DNA of 63,492 nt from contig JBDRSV010000001.1 of the NCBI GenBank assembly GCA_043824495.1, positions 1 through 63,492 of the forward strand, read 5' to 3'. Numbering within the stretch: position 1 is the first letter of the stretch; every line of letters begins with the position of its first letter. Below, in pieces: positions 3,495 to 34,551 of the stretch. Origin of the DNA: Candidatus Aenigmatarchaeota archaeon. Its GTDB lineage: Archaea > Aenigmatarchaeota > Aenigmatarchaeia > QMZP01. The notes beneath the pieces were generated by a model that was not told where the DNA came from, searched no databases, and saw only the letters and a program-made list of their open reading frames with translations. The position numbers were made by a program, and so were the translations under genes.

Positions 3495-5945
3495 ATGATC
3501 AAGGTTGTGATTTTGACTGCTTTCTTATTTACATTCTTAGTTGTTTCTGGAGTGAACGGACAACTTTCTTGTGTTACTGTGGATGGGAATACAAATCCGT
3601 GTACTGATACTTTAGTTTTCAAGATGACAACACCGGACACAACAGAATCTCACGCAGAACTTCCAGGACAGACAAATTATGACTGGGAAGTTTGTTGTAG
3701 CGGAGTAGCTGGTTTAGGAAATGCATGTGATGGAAATTCTGATATTGTATTGAAACTATCTGGTGTGACGGATGCACATGTAGAAGAAGATACAGGAACT
3801 TCATATTCAACTGATGTTTGTTTAACTGCTCCTAATGGAGCTGATTGTGTTTATTACACAGATCCTAATCCATGTCCTGTGGATTATACTTGTGTGGCAA
3901 GAACTTCTGCTTCCACAGATGCACATGTAATGAATTGTACAACAACCACATATCCAATTAAAGTATGCTGCAGCGCAGCTGCGCTAGATGATGTTCAAAC
4001 TCAAATAATTTCTCCGCCTGCAAGCTCTTGGCATAGTACAGATTTTCAGGTTGATGTTCAAGACATAAGAGCAGACCCATCAATGTGTGTTTACAGGGTA
4101 TTCAACACAACTGATAAGACATATCCAATAGGGGCAGAATGGGCTTCTAGGGTATGCAATAGTGTTATTCCCAACATTCTTGTTGGACCTACTGGTTATT
4201 GTCAAGAAGAAGGTTTGGATACATGCACAGTCGAAGTAAATGCTACTAACACAACAACAGGAAACAGCGCGACATACAATAGAAGCTTCGGTATAGACTT
4301 GAGCGCCCCTACAATTTCAATAGAAATAAATTCTGCTGATGTTTACACAAATGATACTATTGTGACGTTGACTCTAACACTCCCAGATGATATAGCTGGA
4401 TGTAAATATTGGAATGAAGGGGATGGAGAACCTGGAACTTGGAACATATCTAATTGTCAGACATCTAAATCATGGACTTTGAATGTAGGAGATGGAGCGA
4501 AAACTGTACACTATAAAATAAAAGATGTTGGTGGATTTGAAGTTGAAGCAACTGATATTATAACTCTGGATACAGTTAAGCCAAACTGTGCTTTGGATCC
4601 GCCACTTGGACAATGGAGTGACATTCCATTTTATATAAATTGGACAGGCAATGATGCTTCTGGCATAGCAAATTATTTTGTGGAGATAAATGATGGTGTA
4701 TGGAAACCATTTGATGATCCTTCAGTAATTTGTAATAATCTTTCATATGATGGAGGAGAGTGCTTCTTGGGAGATGGGAATACCTATGATTTCAGATGTT
4801 CTGCCATTGATGGAGCTCTAAATCTTGGAGATCCATCTCCAATTAATACAACTACTGTAGACAACACTCCTATAATCATAACTGTATTTAATGTATCAGA
4901 ATGGGTAGGATCTGCATCTGAGTACTGGAGAGGGACCATGAATTTTGATAATAATTGGGATGCACTCGAAGCAGGTTCTGGAATAAAATGTTACACTTTC
5001 CAATGGTCTTTGGATGAAAACAATTGGGAGAATGTAGTTTATAATGCATTAGGAGATCACACTGGATGTACAACACTGAAGAATGTTACGTTTGGTCCTG
5101 ATTATGGTCCTGTTTTCCCTATTGCAACGCAAGAATCTGAAACATATTTCTTCAGGCTAAATGCTGAAGATAACGCAGGACGTGTGAGTGATTGGGAATA
5201 TGGAAACACTACAATAGACTTAACATATCCTACAATAAATCTTGGTGCCACTTTCGGACCTGGAGTAAATATAATTTCTCTCGGACAAGATATGATATCT
5301 GGTGTTGATACACATGTCATAGAATGGAGATCATCTTTTGGGGTAGGATCTAAGTCATGTAACTCTGCGCCTGCATGGGGAGGTGTAAGCACGTGCACAG
5401 AAAGTGTTAACCAAGTGTCAGCTTTAACAGTGAATTCTACTGTTGTTGATAGAGCAGGCAATTCTGTTTTCAGAGAAACTGTTGTAGGAACTCCTATTAA
5501 TTTTGATGTTCACAGTCTGAATCTTGTTTTAGGAGATTCTTTTCTGATGAGAGTTAATGTGAGAAACATAGAAGATGATATTGCTAATATTACGCTTAGT
5601 TTAGATGGAACATATCCTCAAGGACTAGTTAACTTCAAGGATGTTGGAACATGGAATTATAGTATAACTCCTGATGGAAGAGAATTGAATATAACAAACG
5701 CAGAACCAAACACAGAGATGGTATATTTCATTGAACTCTTCTCATCTGATGTTTATTCTGGAACAAAAACTTTGATAGTTGATGCTAGAATTTGGGATCC
5801 TTTCACAACAACTGGAAATGACACTGCAATAATAGGAGTTTCATATCCATCAAGTTTTTCTGGATTGAATGATATAGCCGCTGTTATTCTCATCTTAATT
5901 TCAGTTGGCATGTACTCTAGAATCAATCGAAGAAAACAGACATAA
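3495..5945 (+). CDS. Secreted, C-terminally anchored Cys-rich Ig/FN3-like surface protein (paralog family A, member 1)
   Basis: Signal peptide, many NxT/S sequons, modules shared with 9857 and 14295, C-terminus SYPSSFSGLNDIA + TM + RINRRKQT. Confidence 0.75.
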   Translation: MIKVVILTAFLFTFLVVSGVNGQLSCVTVDGNTNPCTDTLVFKMTTPDTTESHAELPGQTNYDWEVCCSGVAGLGNACDGNSDIVLKLSGVTDAHVEEDTGTSYSTDVCLTAPNGADCVYYTDPNPCPVDYTCVARTSASTDAHVMNCTTTTYPIKVCCSAAALDDVQTQIISPPASSWHSTDFQVDVQDIRADPSMCVYRVFNTTDKTYPIGAEWASRVCNSVIPNILVGPTGYCQEEGLDTCTVEVNATNTTTGNSATYNRSFGIDLSAPTISIEINSADVYTNDTIVTLTLTLPDDIAGCKYWNEGDGEPGTWNISNCQTSKSWTLNVGDGAKTVHYKIKDVGGFEVEATDIITLDTVKPNCALDPPLGQWSDIPFYINWTGNDASGIANYFVEINDGVWKPFDDPSVICNNLSYDGGECFLGDGNTYDFRCSAIDGALNLGDPSPINTTTVDNTPIIITVFNVSEWVGSASEYWRGTMNFDNNWDALEAGSGIKCYTFQWSLDENNWENVVYNALGDHTGCTTLKNVTFGPDYGPVFPIATQESETYFFRLNAEDNAGRVSDWEYGNTTIDLTYPTINLGATFGPGVNIISLGQDMISGVDTHVIEWRSSFGVGSKSCNSAPAWGGVSTCTESVNQVSALTVNSTVVDRAGNSVFRETVVGTPINFDVHSLNLVLGDSFLMRVNVRNIEDDIANITLSLDGTYPQGLVNFKDVGTWNYSITPDGRELNITNAEPNTEMVYFIELFSSDVYSGTKTLIVDARIWDPFTTTGNDTAIIGVSYPSSFSGLNDIAAVILILISVGMYSRINRRKQT

Positions 5946-6402
5946 CTAGTTCTGCTTTTCCTTTGTAAAAATGATCTTTCAGTTTTGCTTCTTCTTGGAA
6001 TCCCATTTTCTTATAGAACTCTTGAGCTCTTTTATTATCTTCATGCGTCATTAAGTAAATCTTTCTTAGCTTGAAACCCTTTCTTCTGTAAAAATCATTT
6101 GCTTCTTTCACCAAAAACTCGAATAGAAGTTTAGCTATCCCCTTTCCTCTAAAATCAGGAGAAACAGCTATTCTATCCATTTCAGCTAACATGTGCTTAG
6201 GTAAACCATGTATTTGATAGCTTGCAATTCCTATTATTTTATCATCCACTTCAGCTACCACAAAATTATATTTTTTGTGTGTCTCTTCAAGAAAAACACG
6301 AACACCTTCTTCAACCGTATCAATATTGTATGCTTCTTTGAGAAGTTCTGCTATTCCTCTCATGTCTCTTTCTTTAGCTACTCTGATTATTGGAGCCTTC
6401 AT
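5923..6402 (-). CDS. GNAT-family N-acetyltransferase
   Basis: Acetyl-CoA motif A 'IAVSPDFRGKGIAKLL' and motif B 'DNKRAQEFYKKMGF'. Confidence 0.9.
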   Translation of the reverse strand: MKAPIIRVAKERDMRGIAELLKEAYNIDTVEEGVRVFLEETHKKYNFVVAEVDDKIIGIASYQIHGLPKHMLAEMDRIAVSPDFRGKGIAKLLFEFLVKEANDFYRRKGFKLRKIYLMTHEDNKRAQEFYKKMGFQEEAKLKDHFYKGKAELVMSVFFD

Positions 6403-6451
6403 GTAAATTAGTTAGACGAGAAGGTTAAATTGTTAACCGTCCCACAGAATC

Positions 6452-6459
6452 TTTAAATA
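6452..6459 (+). promoter_or_regulatory. Candidate archaeal TATA box for the AbrB-like/tRNA-His/hutH/hisS unit
   Basis: TTTAAATA about 32 nt upstream of a GGTGA-preceded ATG at 6491, in the divergent intergenic region. Confidence 0.35.
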
Positions 6460-6527
6460 TCTCCTCTACTTACTATAATTTGGTGATTGTATGACTAAGA
6501 TCAAAACATACGGTGATGTAGTTCATC

Positions 6528-6803
6528 TTGAACAATGATTTTCTTAGCTCAAGCACTCCAAATTCTAGAAAACTCCGCATAGATTCTAAAGGTCGCATAA
6601 GTATACCAGCAGACTTAAGACGCTCTTTCGGTTTAGAAGGAGAAGTAGAACTTATTTTCGATATTGAGAAAAACATGTTACTTTTAGTTCCGTTGTATGG
6701 TCGCAATGGTGTAATGGTTAGCACAAGGGCTTGTGGAGCCCTTAGTCTGGGTTCAAATCCCAGTTGCGACCCTAAGGGAGGAGATTATGAAAGAAAATCT
6801 TAA
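6528..6803 (+). CDS. AbrB/MraZ/SpoVT-type swapped-hairpin DNA-binding protein whose 3' part overlaps tRNA-His
   Basis: 'KLRIDSKGRISIPADLRRSFGLEGEVELIFDIEKNMLLLVP' fits the AbrB fold; TTG start with GGTGA at 6512-6516. Confidence 0.7.
   Translation: MNNDFLSSSTPNSRKLRIDSKGRISIPADLRRSFGLEGEVELIFDIEKNMLLLVPLYGRNGVMVSTRACGALSLGSNPSCDPKGGDYERKS
6699..6771 (+). tRNA. tRNA-His(GTG), intronless, with encoded G-1; CCA not encoded
   Basis: Acceptor GTCGCAA 6700-6706/TTGCGAC 6764-6770; D stem GTGT/GCAC; anticodon stem AGGGC/GCCCT with loop TT-GTG-GA (GTG 6733-6735); T arm CTGGG-TTCAAAT-CCCAG; G6699 opposite C6771 is the His identity pair. Confidence 0.95.
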
Positions 6804-6998
6804 AGAGTATCCCCACAGGAGAAGAACTGAAACAGTATAGGATTGACATGAACCTGAAAAAAATAAGACTGAAACTAAGTAGAGGAGATATCGATGAAAA
6901 TGAATATAAGAACGATTTGATCCTATTGGGAGTTTATGTTACATCAGGAATGGGATGATAATATTAAAAAAATTAGATGGAAAAATTAAGGAGTTAAT

Positions 6999-8519
6999 AT
7001 GACGATAAAATTAGATGGGAAGAGCTTGACCGTAGAAGACCTGGTCAAAGTTTCTAGGGAAGACGAGAAAATAGAAATCGCTGGAGATTCTAAAGACAAT
7101 ATAAGAAAAAGTAGAGCCATAGTAGAGAGAATGTTCGAAAAAGGAGAACCTGCATATGGCATAACAACAGGTATTGGTGAACTCGCAAAAGTAATGTTAA
7201 CTAAAGAACAAGCGCAAGAATTCTCAAAATATCTCATTTACAGTCACGCAGGTGGCTATGGAAAACCTGTAGAGAGAGATAGCGTCAGAGCAGCTATTGT
7301 ATCTAGACTTAACACTTTATCTAAAGGAATGTCTGGTGTGAGATTAGAAGTAGTTGAATTTATCGCAGAGATGATCAATAGAGGCGTTACTCCTGTCATG
7401 TATCCTGCATCTGTTGGAGCATGTGGAGATTTAGCTCCATTATCACAAGCTATGCTTGTTCCAATGGGAGAAGGAGAAGCATACTATAAAGGAGAAAAAT
7501 TATCTGGACTGGAAGCATTAAGACGAGTAGGATTGGAACCTATAAAATATGAGATAAGAGACGGTTTAGCTGTAATCAACGGATCCCAATTAACAGCTGG
7601 TATGGGAGCATTAGAAATCTATGATACTGATTTGCTAATCAAAACTTCAGAAGTTGTTGCGGCAATGAGTTTCGAAGCATTGAAAGCTGTTACCAAAGCA
7701 TTTGATGAAGACTTGTTAAAAGTAAGAGGATACGAAGGCGGAATAAAATGTGCTCGAAATATAAGAAGATTGATAGAAGGATCACAAATCCTAGTTAAGC
7801 AAGAAAGAGTTCAAGATGCATACAGTATTAGATCCACACCACAGGTATTGGGATCAGTTAAAGATGCTCTAGCTTTCGCTAGAAAACAAATAGAAATAGA
7901 AATTAATGCTGGAGCAGATAATCCATTATTTATTCCTGATGGGAAAGATGGAAAATATATAGCTGGCGCAAACTTCCAAGGAACGCCTATAGCATTACCA
8001 TTAGAATTACTCGGAACATCAGTAACAGTATTATCCGTCATTTCTGAAAGGAGACTCAACAGGTTGGTAAATCCTAACTTAAACGAGGGATTACCAGCAT
8101 TCCTAACAAAAATGAGTGGTATGCATTCAGGTATAATGATACCACAATACACAGCTGCATCACTTGTTTGTGAGAATCGTGTATTATCAACTCCTGCAGC
8201 AGTTGGATCCATTCCAACAGCAGCTGACCAAGAAGACTTTGTCAGCATGGGAACAAACACAGCAATTAAAACTAAGACGATAATTGACAACTCATTTGCC
8301 GTTGTTGCAATTGAATTATTGGCCGCTGCTCAAGCTCTGGAACTTAGGGGAGGAGAACCATCAAAGGCTGTTAAAGCTGTATTTGATGTGGTTAGAAAAT
8401 ATGTTCCATTCCTCGAAGAAGACAGACCACTATACCCTGACATAGAGAGACTAGCCATGGTAGTAAAAAGTGGTGAAATTCTAGAAGCTGCAGAGAATGT
8501 TATAGGTAAACTAGAATAG
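6999..8519 (+). CDS. hutH: Histidine ammonia-lyase (MIO-dependent aromatic amino acid lyase family)
   Basis: 'YGITTGIG', 'LIYSHA' (SH selectivity motif), 'VGACGDLAPL', 'RVQDAYSIRSTPQV', 'DNP', 'GANFQG', 'QEDFVSMG'. Confidence 0.9.
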   Translation: MTIKLDGKSLTVEDLVKVSREDEKIEIAGDSKDNIRKSRAIVERMFEKGEPAYGITTGIGELAKVMLTKEQAQEFSKYLIYSHAGGYGKPVERDSVRAAIVSRLNTLSKGMSGVRLEVVEFIAEMINRGVTPVMYPASVGACGDLAPLSQAMLVPMGEGEAYYKGEKLSGLEALRRVGLEPIKYEIRDGLAVINGSQLTAGMGALEIYDTDLLIKTSEVVAAMSFEALKAVTKAFDEDLLKVRGYEGGIKCARNIRRLIEGSQILVKQERVQDAYSIRSTPQVLGSVKDALAFARKQIEIEINAGADNPLFIPDGKDGKYIAGANFQGTPIALPLELLGTSVTVLSVISERRLNRLVNPNLNEGLPAFLTKMSGMHSGIMIPQYTAASLVCENRVLSTPAAVGSIPTAADQEDFVSMGTNTAIKTKTIIDNSFAVVAIELLAAAQALELRGGEPSKAVKAVFDVVRKYVPFLEEDRPLYPDIERLAMVVKSGEILEAAENVIGKLE

Positions 8520-8548: not shown

Positions 8549-9826
8549 ATGCAACCACCTAGAGGAACTCGAGACTTCATGCCAGAAGAAATGGTGAAAA
8601 GAAACTATATGTTTAGAACTATCTCTGAAGTTTTCGAGAGTTTTGGTTTCAAGCCTTTGGAGACTCCTGCTTTTGAATCATGGGAATTACTTGCAAAGAA
8701 AGGTGGAGGAGGAGACGAAGTCAAAAATGAAATTTATTATTTCAAGGATAAATCAGATAGAGAACTTGGATTGAGATTTGATTTAACTGTTCCTATGACC
8801 CGTGTTGTGGCAAGCAATCCACAACTACCAAAACCATTCAAGAGATATCAGATTGGAAGAGTGTGGAGATATGACAGACCTCAAGCTGGACGCTTCAGAG
8901 AATTCTGGCAAGCTGATGTAGATGTAGTTGGTTCTGCAAGCATGAAAGCTGATTCTGAATGTTTATTAGTAGCTGTGAGAGCTTTGGAAGCTCTTGGTTT
9001 CCAGAAATTTGTTGTCAGAGTAAACAACAGAAAAATTCTGAATGGATTAATAGAACTTGTCAAAATAAAGGACAGGGTTGGTGTTTTCAGGAGTTTGGAT
9101 AAGTTGGAAAAGATTGGAAAGAAAGGTGTTATGGAAGAACTTTCATCCAAAAATGTTTCTAAGAAGGATGCTGAGAAGTTATTTAGTTTAATAGAATTGA
9201 AAGGAAAACCAGATGATATGATTAAGAAGGGGAGAAGCTTGCTCAAAGGGATCAAGATAGCTGAAGAGGGAATGGATGAACTAGAAACAATGATTACAGA
9301 GGCAAAGATGTATGAAATTTCAGATTACATAATATTTGATTTCAGTCTTGTCAGAGGATTAGACTATTACACAGGTCCTATATTCGAAGTATTTGAAAAG
9401 GGATTTGAGAATTTAGGATCCATATCAGCTGGTGGTAGATACGACAAAATGATCGGAATGTATGGTAGAGACACACCAGCTACTGGTATTTCTCTGGGAA
9501 TAGAAAGAATTTACGAGATTATGAAAGAGAGAAAAATGTTCAAAACTTCTGGTGTTACTAAAGCATTTGTTTTGTGCATGAATGACAGTGTAAGAAAGGA
9601 CGCTATCAAACTATCCCAAGAACTTAGAAAAAACAATATAAACAATGAGATAGACTTGATTGGAAGAGATTTTAGAAAACAGTTAGATTATGCTAATTCT
9701 ACAAACATACCATTCGTGGTTTTTGTGGGTGAAAAAGAAGTCAAAACTAAGAAATTCACTCTAAAAGACATGAAATCGGGAAAACAAGAGTTATTCAGCT
9801 TACAAGATCTTATTAAGAAGCTTTAG
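8549..9826 (+). CDS. hisS: Histidyl-tRNA synthetase
   Basis: 'PPRGTRDF', 'LRFDLTVP', 'RYDRPQAGRFREFWQADVD', 'RGLDYYTG', 'AGGRYD'. Confidence 0.97.
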   Translation: MQPPRGTRDFMPEEMVKRNYMFRTISEVFESFGFKPLETPAFESWELLAKKGGGGDEVKNEIYYFKDKSDRELGLRFDLTVPMTRVVASNPQLPKPFKRYQIGRVWRYDRPQAGRFREFWQADVDVVGSASMKADSECLLVAVRALEALGFQKFVVRVNNRKILNGLIELVKIKDRVGVFRSLDKLEKIGKKGVMEELSSKNVSKKDAEKLFSLIELKGKPDDMIKKGRSLLKGIKIAEEGMDELETMITEAKMYEISDYIIFDFSLVRGLDYYTGPIFEVFEKGFENLGSISAGGRYDKMIGMYGRDTPATGISLGIERIYEIMKERKMFKTSGVTKAFVLCMNDSVRKDAIKLSQELRKNNINNEIDLIGRDFRKQLDYANSTNIPFVVFVGEKEVKTKKFTLKDMKSGKQELFSLQDLIKKL

Positions 9827-33791: not shown

Positions 33792-34551
33792 ATGAAAATA
33801 ATTATTCTTGGGACCGCAGGTGGTCGCTTTCGCTGTAATAAATCAACTAAGAGCTAGCGGTGGGTGGATTATTGAGATGAGTGGAGAAATGTTACACATA
33901 GATCCAGGACCAGGGGCCTTGGTAAGAGCTAAAGAGTATAAAGTGGATTTATTCAAACTTACAGGCTTACTCGTATCTCATGCGCATCCTGATCATTACG
34001 GAGACGCAGAAATGGTTTTAGAAGCTATGACAGGAGGCGCTAAAGTAAAAAGAGGCGTCTTAATAGGAAATGAGAATGTGATTAAAGGCGGTAAGACATA
34101 TCATCCTGTTTTCTCACCGTATCACCTAAAAGCTGTTGACAAGTATGTAGTAATGAAAGCGGGCGATAAGACAAATATTGGTAAGATTAACATCACAGCA
34201 ACAAAAACCGTACATGATGAACCTAAATGTATAGGTTTTGTTTTTGAAGGATCTAAGAAAATAGGATTCACATCAGACGGAGAGTATTTTAAAGGACAAG
34301 CTGAATACTACAAAGGATGTGATTATTTGGTTATTAATTGTATGATACAAAAGGATTATTCTTGGCCAGGTCATATCAATGTGAATGATGCAGCTAAACT
34401 AATAAAAGAGGTGAACCCTAAAACAGCTATACTAAAAGACTTTAGTAGTTATTTATTAGAAGCCGGACCAGAAGAGCAAATTGAATGGATAGAAAAAACA
34501 ACTGGAATAAAAACAATCGCTGCAAAAGACGGGATGAAACTCAATCTTTAG
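33792..34551 (+). CDS. MBL-fold metallo-hydrolase with a +1 frameshift near 33828-33831 (programmed, pseudogenised or assembly error)
   Basis: GGAGGTGA SD then ATG 33792 'MKIIILGTAGGRF'; continuation 'AVINQLRASGG...SHAHPDHYGD' is in the +1 frame. Confidence 0.8.

Follow-up and report, generated by a model that had tools for sequence, protein, structure and literature searches.

The stretch of DNA analysed here (the window; 63,492 nt of contig JBDRSV010000001.1 from a Candidatus Aenigmatarchaeota archaeon) was found to contain a tRNA-His gene that lies wholly within an open reading frame (ORF) for an AbrB-like protein, preceded on the same strand by a promoter and a short leader ORF and followed by a second leader and by genes for a small conserved protein (ORF2), a histidine/aromatic amino-acid ammonia-lyase (HAL-like) and a histidyl-tRNA synthetase (HisRS). 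The genome of the window (G000; 1.0 Mb, 36% GC, assembly 80% complete) belongs to a groundwater archaeon whose relatives are labelled Candidatus Aenigmatarchaeota (DPANN archaea). A check of the assembly on a 61.7-kb contig showed a depth of about 40 and zero variants with a read run that is probably the window's own source. In two metatranscriptomes of the same study, only the tRNA-His segment of another organism was found.

The tRNA-His(GTG) occupies positions 6699–6771 of the forward strand when its encoded G-1 is included, and it was placed at 6700–6772 by ARAGORN and at 6700–6771 by the Rfam tRNA model (66.5 bits). ARAGORN, Rfam and the sequence together showed the features expected of a tRNA-His, namely a cloverleaf, a GUG anticodon and a G-1 (6699) opposite C73, the discriminator base at 6771; read from the sequence, CCA is not encoded. 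The AbrB frame (6522–6803, forward strand), which is +1 relative to the leader, opens after a TAG at 6519–6521, runs through the entire tRNA without a stop, ends at the TAA at 6801–6803 and does not encode a single histidine. Within it a GGN codon begins with G-1, and the only canonical start is the TTG at 6528, where the listed ORF of 91 residues begins. A preliminary description of this DNA had placed the tRNA entirely inside an AbrB-like coding sequence of the same strand, with a stop-free frame from the domain through the tRNA to the TAA, and both statements were borne out by ARAGORN, Rfam and the open frame. The RNase P cleavage that it had put at 6699 would fall instead between 6698 and 6699, because G-1 belongs to the tRNA-His.

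The tRNA at 6700–6771 was the sole credible tRNA-His found in the 80%-complete assembly. Two additional tRNA-His calls made by ARAGORN in intron mode (C8:25109-25224 and C24:102125-102291) were rejected: BLAST showed them to be unlike the tRNA-His of the window, and these long intron-bearing calls look like other tRNAs with a misread anticodon. Among relatives, the genome that holds loci L007 and L030 and genomes G016, G019 and G037 were found to have a free-standing tRNA-His gene in addition to one embedded in an AbrB frame, the latter often with an intron.

As a first step, a DNA search across 41 relatives detected the AbrB-plus-tRNA unit in one genome of the same genus and in one of another genus. 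A profile (A1) built from five homologs then gave matches in 127 of 371 genomes of the class; homolog matches reached 1e-32, and the profile also picked up unrelated bacterial AbrB/MraZ proteins. The set analysed consisted of 72 homolog hits across 71 loci (L-numbered).

A homolog was located directly 5′ of a tRNA-His on the same strand in 39 loci from eight families. In all 39, base 1 of the tRNA falls on the second position of a codon and the frame crosses the full tRNA; the junction between the end of the domain and the tRNA had 16 distinct lengths, from -5 to 61 nt, each of them 1 mod 3. The G-1 frame was free of stops in 29/29 intron-less embedded tRNAs, and either other frame carried stops in 26 of these 29. 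Embedded tRNA-His introns were found in ten loci, mostly in the T-loop, and all ten were stop-free in frame; the lengths obtained for the eight of these loci in which the 3′ end could be placed (18, 36, 36, 36, 39, 45, 63, and 84 nt) were all multiples of 3. The identical phase was also seen in L072 (984-1778), where an ORF for an Asp/Glu-type racemase, not AbrB, crosses the tRNA-His, and both L024 (a 336-codon frame) and the public protein P0030 combine AbrB, tRNA and racemase in a single ORF. The racemase that recurs in these operons may have a histidine-related role. The non-canonical T-loop introns were observed at L015:1685-1792 and L013:3191-3301 and in L030, L050, L053, L045, L038, and L022; the embedded tRNA-His of L051 has an additional intron after the anticodon loop. 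ARAGORN overlooked the intron-bearing embedded tRNA-His genes of the relatives.

The position of the stop was conserved as well. Among 28 loci, the through-tRNA frame reached the next ATG led by a Shine-Dalgarno (SD) sequence in 25, compared to 15/28 and 3/28 for the two control frames. The frame stops +1 to +29 nt past the A of that ATG, except in the fused L024, and stop and start overlap as ATGA in seven loci; in the three exceptions among the 28 the stop lies 4–13 nt ahead of the ATG. In the window, the tail of the frame (6772–6803, forward strand) ends with the TAA at 6801–6803, 14 nt past the A of the SD-led ATG that comes next. The tRNA 3′ trailer (6772–6776 and its equivalents) was observed to open mostly with C-TAA or C-TGA, in a frame other than that of the ORF, and this other frame closes at once in 25/28 loci.

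The simplest account of these observations is chance or an annotation artefact, in which the regulator lost its stop here, or a gene caller extended it, and the overlap means nothing. The G-1 frame is intrinsically stop-free in most tRNA-His genes, the free-standing ones included (5/7), so any ORF that enters in phase extends passively. What such passive extension does not predict is one phase in 39/39 loci despite 16 junction lengths, introns that are all stop-free and multiples of 3, or a stop placed at the next start codon. An out-of-phase junction would add only 5–7 residues and should be harmless, so neutrality predicts about two thirds of the loci to be out of phase, yet none was seen. 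We consider this account hardly credible. The preliminary description had allowed that homologs might stop before the tRNA, as expected from a chance stop loss in the window, and had raised the alternative that the frame is kept open in related genomes; the latter was found, in one phase throughout. Since read-through in a single phase is common to all adjacent homologs, the overlap seems to have been selected and not to reflect chance stop loss, and translation across the tRNA appears selected.

The preliminary description had also suggested that, with a non-stop mRNA left by an RNase P cut, maturation of the tRNA could gate the regulator, or the reverse. In a version of this model in which cutting by RNase P and tRNase Z competes with translation, frameshifting is inessential. 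It draws on the reasoning, which still stands, that intact mRNA and mature tRNA would be mutually exclusive on one molecule, and it is consistent with the presence of only one credible tRNA-His in the assembly and with a tRNA-encoded tail that is predicted to be disordered. However, a 5′ cut yields a non-stop mRNA in any phase, and RNase P on its own therefore does not account for the conservation of the phase; the multiples of 3 among the introns and the stop position are equally unexplained, and the model disregards the conserved cassette and the missing start codons described below. We regard it as unlikely to be the main mechanism, and RNase P/tRNase Z competition may act as a second layer above a frameshift gate. 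The phase rule itself points to ribosomes that arrive at the next cistron by crossing the tRNA before it is processed.

The protein encoded upstream of the tRNA contains an AbrB/SpoVT-type swapped-hairpin domain (6573–6692, forward strand), as judged from Pfam (PF04014 and PF02381), an AlphaFold2 model and Foldseek. Residues 16–55 matched MraZ (PF02381) with 25.7 bits (cut-off 23) and MazE_antitoxin/SpoVT-AbrB (PF04014) with 24.8 bits (cut-off 24.7), the latter placing the protein in PF04014 with what is a marginal match for a single sequence. The core of the model (residues 17–58) showed a predicted local distance difference test (pLDDT) score of 85–92, and the best Foldseek matches in PDB were 1yfb (AbrB-N), 2w1t (SpoVT; 46 columns with a root mean square deviation of 1.8) and 2l66 (Sso7c4). 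The probabilities were 0.91–0.99, but the E-values for this small domain only 0.1–0.6. Thus, the N-terminal domain is alike in sequence and predicted fold to AbrB/SpoVT/MazE proteins such as B. subtilis AbrB and SpoVT and Sulfolobus Sso7c4, and the protein differs from them in its entry through a putative frameshift leader, its His-free composition and its tRNA-encoded tail. The family as a whole is nearly free of histidine: the +1-frame products of 67 loci contained 3 His in 6365 residues, compared to about 108 expected from the 1.69% His in the long ORFs of the genome.

A different reason for keeping the frame open would be that the tRNA-encoded peptide (GxxGVxxSTxxCGxxxxGSxPGxGP) is a functional C-terminal module, and that the frame is maintained for the protein. 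The tail is always there when the tRNA is adjacent, and among the top 150 cluster representatives from a library of 1.8 billion public proteins, roughly half had a match that extended through it. Its conservation is no more than that of the tRNA itself, however, and the tail is predicted to be disordered (pLDDT of about 50), tolerates introns of 18–84 nt, is borne by a different protein in L072 (the racemase), and is missing from homologs with no adjacent tRNA, which end 5–15 residues past the domain. A role for the peptide as such is therefore judged very improbable.

AbrB/MazE domains are common antitoxins, as reflected in the Pfam match obtained here, and tRNA genes are integration targets. 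The locus could on this basis be the remnant of a toxin-antitoxin system or an integrated element, with an AbrB/VapB-type antitoxin truncated by integration at tRNA-His. No cognate toxin gene (MazF, VapC/PIN etc.) was found downstream, where the tRNA-His, ORF2 (47 residues), HAL and HisRS follow instead, and in the relatives the downstream genes were HisRS, HisG, racemase, GNAT and others, with no adjacent toxin. In addition, neither repeats nor an integrase were seen adjoining the locus in the window, and at least eight families keep intact domains, promoter, leader and His-related neighbours. The probability of a remnant is close to negligible.

Upstream of the AbrB domain, the leader ORF (frame 0, 15 codons; 6491–6538, forward strand) starts at an ATG at 6491, encodes MTKIKTYGDVVHLEQ and ends at a TGA at 6536–6538. 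Read from the sequence, a Shine-Dalgarno sequence GGTGAT (6482–6487, forward strand) lies 3 nt ahead of the ATG, and the pentamers most enriched upstream of the long ORFs of this genome were GGAGG, GAGGT, AGGTG, GGTGA, and GTGAT. Homologous SD-led ATG leaders, ending in ..G-[GDE]-x-V/L-H, were detected in 67/72 loci. Near the end of the leader is a putative +1 frameshift cassette (6512–6526, forward strand), composed of a second GGTGAT (6512–6517), the spacer GTA, a slippery GTT (6521–6523) and a His codon CAT (6524–6526). The preliminary description had assumed a plain start at the TTG; the main gate would instead be this SD-led ATG frame with a cassette like that of bacterial prfB at its His codon.

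A CAY cassette, correctly framed and placed, was present in 68/72 homolog loci, and the same search with control codons gave only 7 (CAR), 4 (CGN), 2 (CTN) and 3 (CCN) of 72. Within the search pattern, the slippery codon was GTT in 61 modules, CTT in 14, CCC in 8 and TTT in 3, always followed by C, and the sensor codon was CAT in 44 and CAC in 42. The SD-like stimulator was outside the search pattern and was nevertheless conserved, with a G found at -8 in 96% of sequences, at -6 in 90%, and at both positions in 59/68. Its hexamers (GGTGAA, GGTGGA, GGTGAT, AGGAGG and similar) agree with the SD consensus of the genome and lie exactly three bases 5′ of the slippery codon. Two tandem modules whose frames sum correctly were found in 19 loci. 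After the conserved Phe of the AbrB frame, Thr and Ile alternate as the outcome of synonymous CAC and CAT in the leader frame, and this mirroring indicates that the leader frame is under selection at that point; codon-position entropy 3′ of the cassette showed a +1-frame periodicity that is only weak at this evolutionary depth. A general gene-start motif was rejected as an explanation, as both RTG-NNN-YAG-TTCAY and the strict cassette occurred at a gene start only here in G000, with a single instance of the strict cassette in the genome.

Elsewhere in the window (33794-34551), a metallo-beta-lactamase (MBL) fold hydrolase was found to be split, with its N-terminus in frame 0 (MKIIILGTAGGRF..., stop at 33855-33857) and its body in the +1 frame (249 codons; Lactamase_B_2, 79 bits). 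The join, GGTGGT-CGC-TTT-CGC, has the same build as the His cassette with an Arg codon, CGC, in the A site, and it may be counted as in-window support for reading such an arrangement as a frameshift cassette.

Entry into the AbrB frame by ordinary initiation was weighed against these data. The leader could be a plain upstream ORF with no frameshift, in which a pause at the His codon alters initiation at a separate AbrB start (TTG 6528 here; GTG in GGTGA, or others, elsewhere). Leader control based on pausing is well established in bacteria, as in the his operon leader, a GGTGAT lies 10 nt upstream of the TTG at 6528, and family f4 and some downstream genes have a +1 frame opened directly by GTG. 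On the other hand, the part of the AbrB frame that precedes the domain contains no ATG, GTG or TTG in 24 loci, including L015 from the same genus. In 37 modules a TAG stands directly before the TTC in the AbrB frame, separating any GTG from the ORF, and such a stop just before the entry point blocks any upstream start in that frame. SD-like variants with no GTG (AGGAGG, GGGGAT, GGCGAT) are common, the slippery codon is limited to GTT, CTT, TTT and CCC before C, a limit that a pause does not need, tandem modules sum their frames, and a paused ribosome would also occlude nearby alternative starts. Initiation at a separate start is on balance quite unlikely.

The TAG before the entry point would take on another meaning if translation started at the GTG or ATG of GTG-ATG-TAG-TTC (6513–6524) and the TAG at 6519–6521 were decoded, e.g., as Gln. 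This position holds TAG, never TAA or TGA, in many loci, and L019, L034 and L036 have CAG there (MQFIS in L019 and L034). Such a TAG, however, simply results from a frame-0 TTA, GTA or CTA followed by G. Moreover, an SD precedes the frame-0 ATG but not the GTG, and many SD-like variants give no start codon in that frame. TAG terminates 139/585 long ORFs in G000 as a normal stop, by which genome-wide reassignment of TAG was ruled out. Read-through was considered scarcely plausible.

The promoter region (6438–6459, forward strand) contains a CGTCCCACAGAA element (6438–6449) followed by a TATA box, TTTAAATA (6452–6459). The same element with a TATA box also heads L002, L004, L013, L014, L022, L030, L041, L043, and L072, with the element occurring twice in L030. 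In 42/67 loci the 110 nt before the leader ATG contained a CCCAC-like motif, and in G000 no CCCAC[AC]RA[AT] site other than that of this promoter has a TATA box after it. The element CGTCCCACAGAA is a candidate operator or a specialised transcription factor B recognition element (BRE); the AbrB-like product is of a DNA-binding type and probably targets this element at its own promoter. Divergent from the operon promoter, a GNAT acetyltransferase gene was observed at 5923-6402 on the reverse strand, and L082 has a GNAT gene 3′ of its tRNA-His behind a His cassette of its own.

The downstream operon context of ORF2, HAL and HisRS had been overlooked in the preliminary description. The second leader (6776–6840, forward strand) comprises an SD, GGGAGGAGAT (6776–6785), an ATG at 6787, MKENLKEYPHRRRTETV and a TAG stop at 6838–6840. 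It contains a weaker candidate cassette, AAAGAG-TAT-CCC(6811–6813)-CAC(6814–6816), which is not independently validated; at the homologous place in L015 of the same genus, the cassette is a textbook one, AGGAGG-TTA-GTT-CAC. ORF2 (6815–6958, forward strand) lies in the +1 frame of the second leader of the window and encodes a small conserved protein ending in ..YVTSGMG, with homologous frames in L015 and L025 and a single weak Pfam match (AF0941-like, E 0.004); an internal ATG at 6848 could start a shorter ORF2 product. The HAL-like gene (6999–8519, forward strand; Pfam Lyase_aromatic, 540 bits) and the HisRS gene (8549–9826, forward strand; Pfam tRNA-synt_His, 176.6 bits, and HGTP_anticodon) follow. 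In 29/71 related loci a HisRS N-terminal motif followed the AbrB frame within 1.3 kb, and His modules of their own were found for downstream genes encoding HisG (three loci), Asp/Glu-type racemases, GNAT and others. The HisG-like (ATP phosphoribosyltransferase) genes behind His cassettes were located at L056:1119-1748, L024:5-640 and L038:2-688, and the conserved HisG N-terminus (IAxPxGR) starts directly after the slip site. The locus probably opens an operon for histidine-tRNA homeostasis in Aenigmatarchaeota, ordered as promoter, leader, AbrB-through-tRNA-His, ORF2, HAL and HisRS.

The anatomy of the system and its conservation are shown by comparison among the loci, as are the phase rule, the specificity for His and a product free of His. 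From these we infer, with a probability of roughly 0.6, that translation of the His-free regulator depends on a +1 slip at a hungry His codon, and that the same gate acts across the tRNA on the downstream genes coupled to it; the slippage itself, the response to His-tRNA-His, the coupling via tRNA crossing and the target of the protein belong to the following proposed mechanism. Ribosomes would enter at the SD-led ATG at 6491. With ample His-tRNA-His, GTT-CAT would be decoded in frame and translation would stop at 6536, yielding only a 15-residue peptide. With scarce His-tRNA-His, the CAT in the A site would remain empty, the SD-like GGTGAT three bases upstream would pull the ribosome as in bacterial prfB, and the P-site tRNA would shift from GTT to TTC, so that TTC would be in the P site, ATC (6525–6527) would be read next and the +1 frame would be translated. 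The product would be the His-free DNA-binding protein of AbrB/SpoVT type, which probably acts on the element at its own promoter. The frame being open across the tRNA-His, the ribosome would be delivered to the start of the next cistron, by termination-reinitiation or with shielding of the nascent RNA, and the frameshift signal would be relayed downstream, to ORF2 here and to HisRS, HisG, racemases and others in the relatives. More tentatively, and with rather less than even odds, charged tRNA-His would control its own operon via one sensor codon, in the leader of an RNA that also bears its gene and the gene of its synthetase; under scarcity, a +1 slip followed by translation through the tRNA-His precursor would decide for each molecule whether it serves as polycistronic mRNA (for the regulator, HisRS and others) or is cut to tRNA.

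Several points weigh against the slippage mechanism. In this window the TTG at 6528, 10 nt after GGTGAT, could be an ordinary start, and in family f4 and some downstream genes initiation is possible at a GTG within GGTGA that directly opens the +1 frame. Re-pairing from GTT to TTC involves a first-position mismatch. The slippery codon and CAY were imposed by the search pattern, and the His specificity accordingly rests on the control codons and not on the raw 86/86; the loci also share ancestry, by which the counts exaggerate their independence. The 16S ribosomal RNA was not found in the assembly, and the anti-SD was deduced from gene starts. A HAL, which degrades histidine, is odd in an operon induced by His shortage. 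A second, free-standing tRNA-His is present in several relatives, and G000 is only 80% complete. The crossing of the tRNA by ribosomes could serve coupling, anti-polarity or protection of the nascent RNA, or the control of RNase P/Z access. Finally, the host organism is uncultured.

The cassette was compared with known systems, of which prfB is the closest in build. The prfB site consists of an SD-like AGGGGG, 3 nt, CUU, UGA, and C (PMC5009743). The histidine leader likewise has a short SD-led frame-0 ORF that starts with ATG, an SD-like stimulator exactly 3 nt before a slippery NUU/CCC codon that can re-pair, and a C thereafter (PMC5009743); a slow A-site codon would sense the operon's own product, and the functional protein is in the +1 frame. 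As the sensed molecule, tRNA-His charged by HisRS, is the operon's own product, the autoregulatory logic would be that of prfB. The A-site codon, however, is a sense codon (His CAY) and not the stop UGA, the sensed molecule would be His-tRNA-His and not a release factor, and the system is archaeal, has tandem modules and modules repeated before several cistrons, extends its +1 frame across a tRNA gene and is known here from sequence. By analogy, the histidine cassette is taken to work like prfB, yet it is not a member of the prfB family.

The his leader of bacteria (hisL) shares a short leader with His codons before histidine-related genes, in which the translating ribosome reads charged tRNA-His. 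It differs in having a run of seven His codons instead of one and in releasing RNA polymerase, where the output here would be a change of frame and translational coupling. The alternative terminator and antiterminator hairpins of a leader-peptide attenuator were not found: a scan for terminator-like sites of bacterial type at 6491–6700 of the forward strand gave none, a result that is uninformative for an archaeon, as is that of the bacterial-type promoter scan. T-boxes of bacterial aminoacyl-tRNA synthetase genes raise synthetase levels when the tRNA is uncharged, and a link to hisS is common to both systems, but sensing here would take place in the ribosomal A site and not in a tRNA-binding RNA; an Rfam scan of the locus detected neither a T-box nor any other family besides the tRNA. 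The +1 frameshift of antizyme, a polyamine sensor, is also one in which sensor and effector are joined, with a different ligand, different stimulators and a different domain of life. In the E. coli tufB operon and in mitochondrial tRNA punctuation, a tRNA and a coding sequence share one primary transcript, and processing of the tRNA cuts the mRNA. In such co-transcripts the tRNA sits between ORFs or shares a few bases with them; here an entire tRNA, introns included, is contained in a reading frame whose openness and phase are conserved across an archaeal class. The system as a whole belongs to neither prfB, antizyme, his-leader attenuation nor T-boxes. The cassette alone resembles the prfB/antizyme kind, and its combination with an in-frame tRNA is without a described counterpart.

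According to reviews, only one frameshift, a -1 event, has been proven in Archaea (PMC8211752), and shifting at hungry codons was handled as an incidental phenomenon in a 2016 review of recoding (PMC5009743). No description of a His-codon frameshift, or of a tRNA within an AbrB ORF, was found in the literature. If the mechanism proposed here is true, no conserved +1 programmed frameshift would have been described before it among cellular archaeal genes, and it would be the first natural regulator in which frameshift efficiency is set by a hungry sense codon and not by a stop codon or polyamines, the ribosome directly sensing one aminoacyl-tRNA. A translated ORF would hold a tRNA gene, introns included, that is maintained in frame, and the competition between translation and processing would be testable on one RNA. 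The reading would account for the hundreds of AbrB proteins with Gly/Pro-rich tails that gene callers report in DPANN metagenomes, and for the many such AbrB genes that seem to have no start codon. On the more tentative reading, in which charged tRNA-His controls its own operon, the system would represent a ribosome-based archaeal counterpart of attenuation and T-boxes, and the first programmed frameshift that senses an aminoacyl-tRNA.

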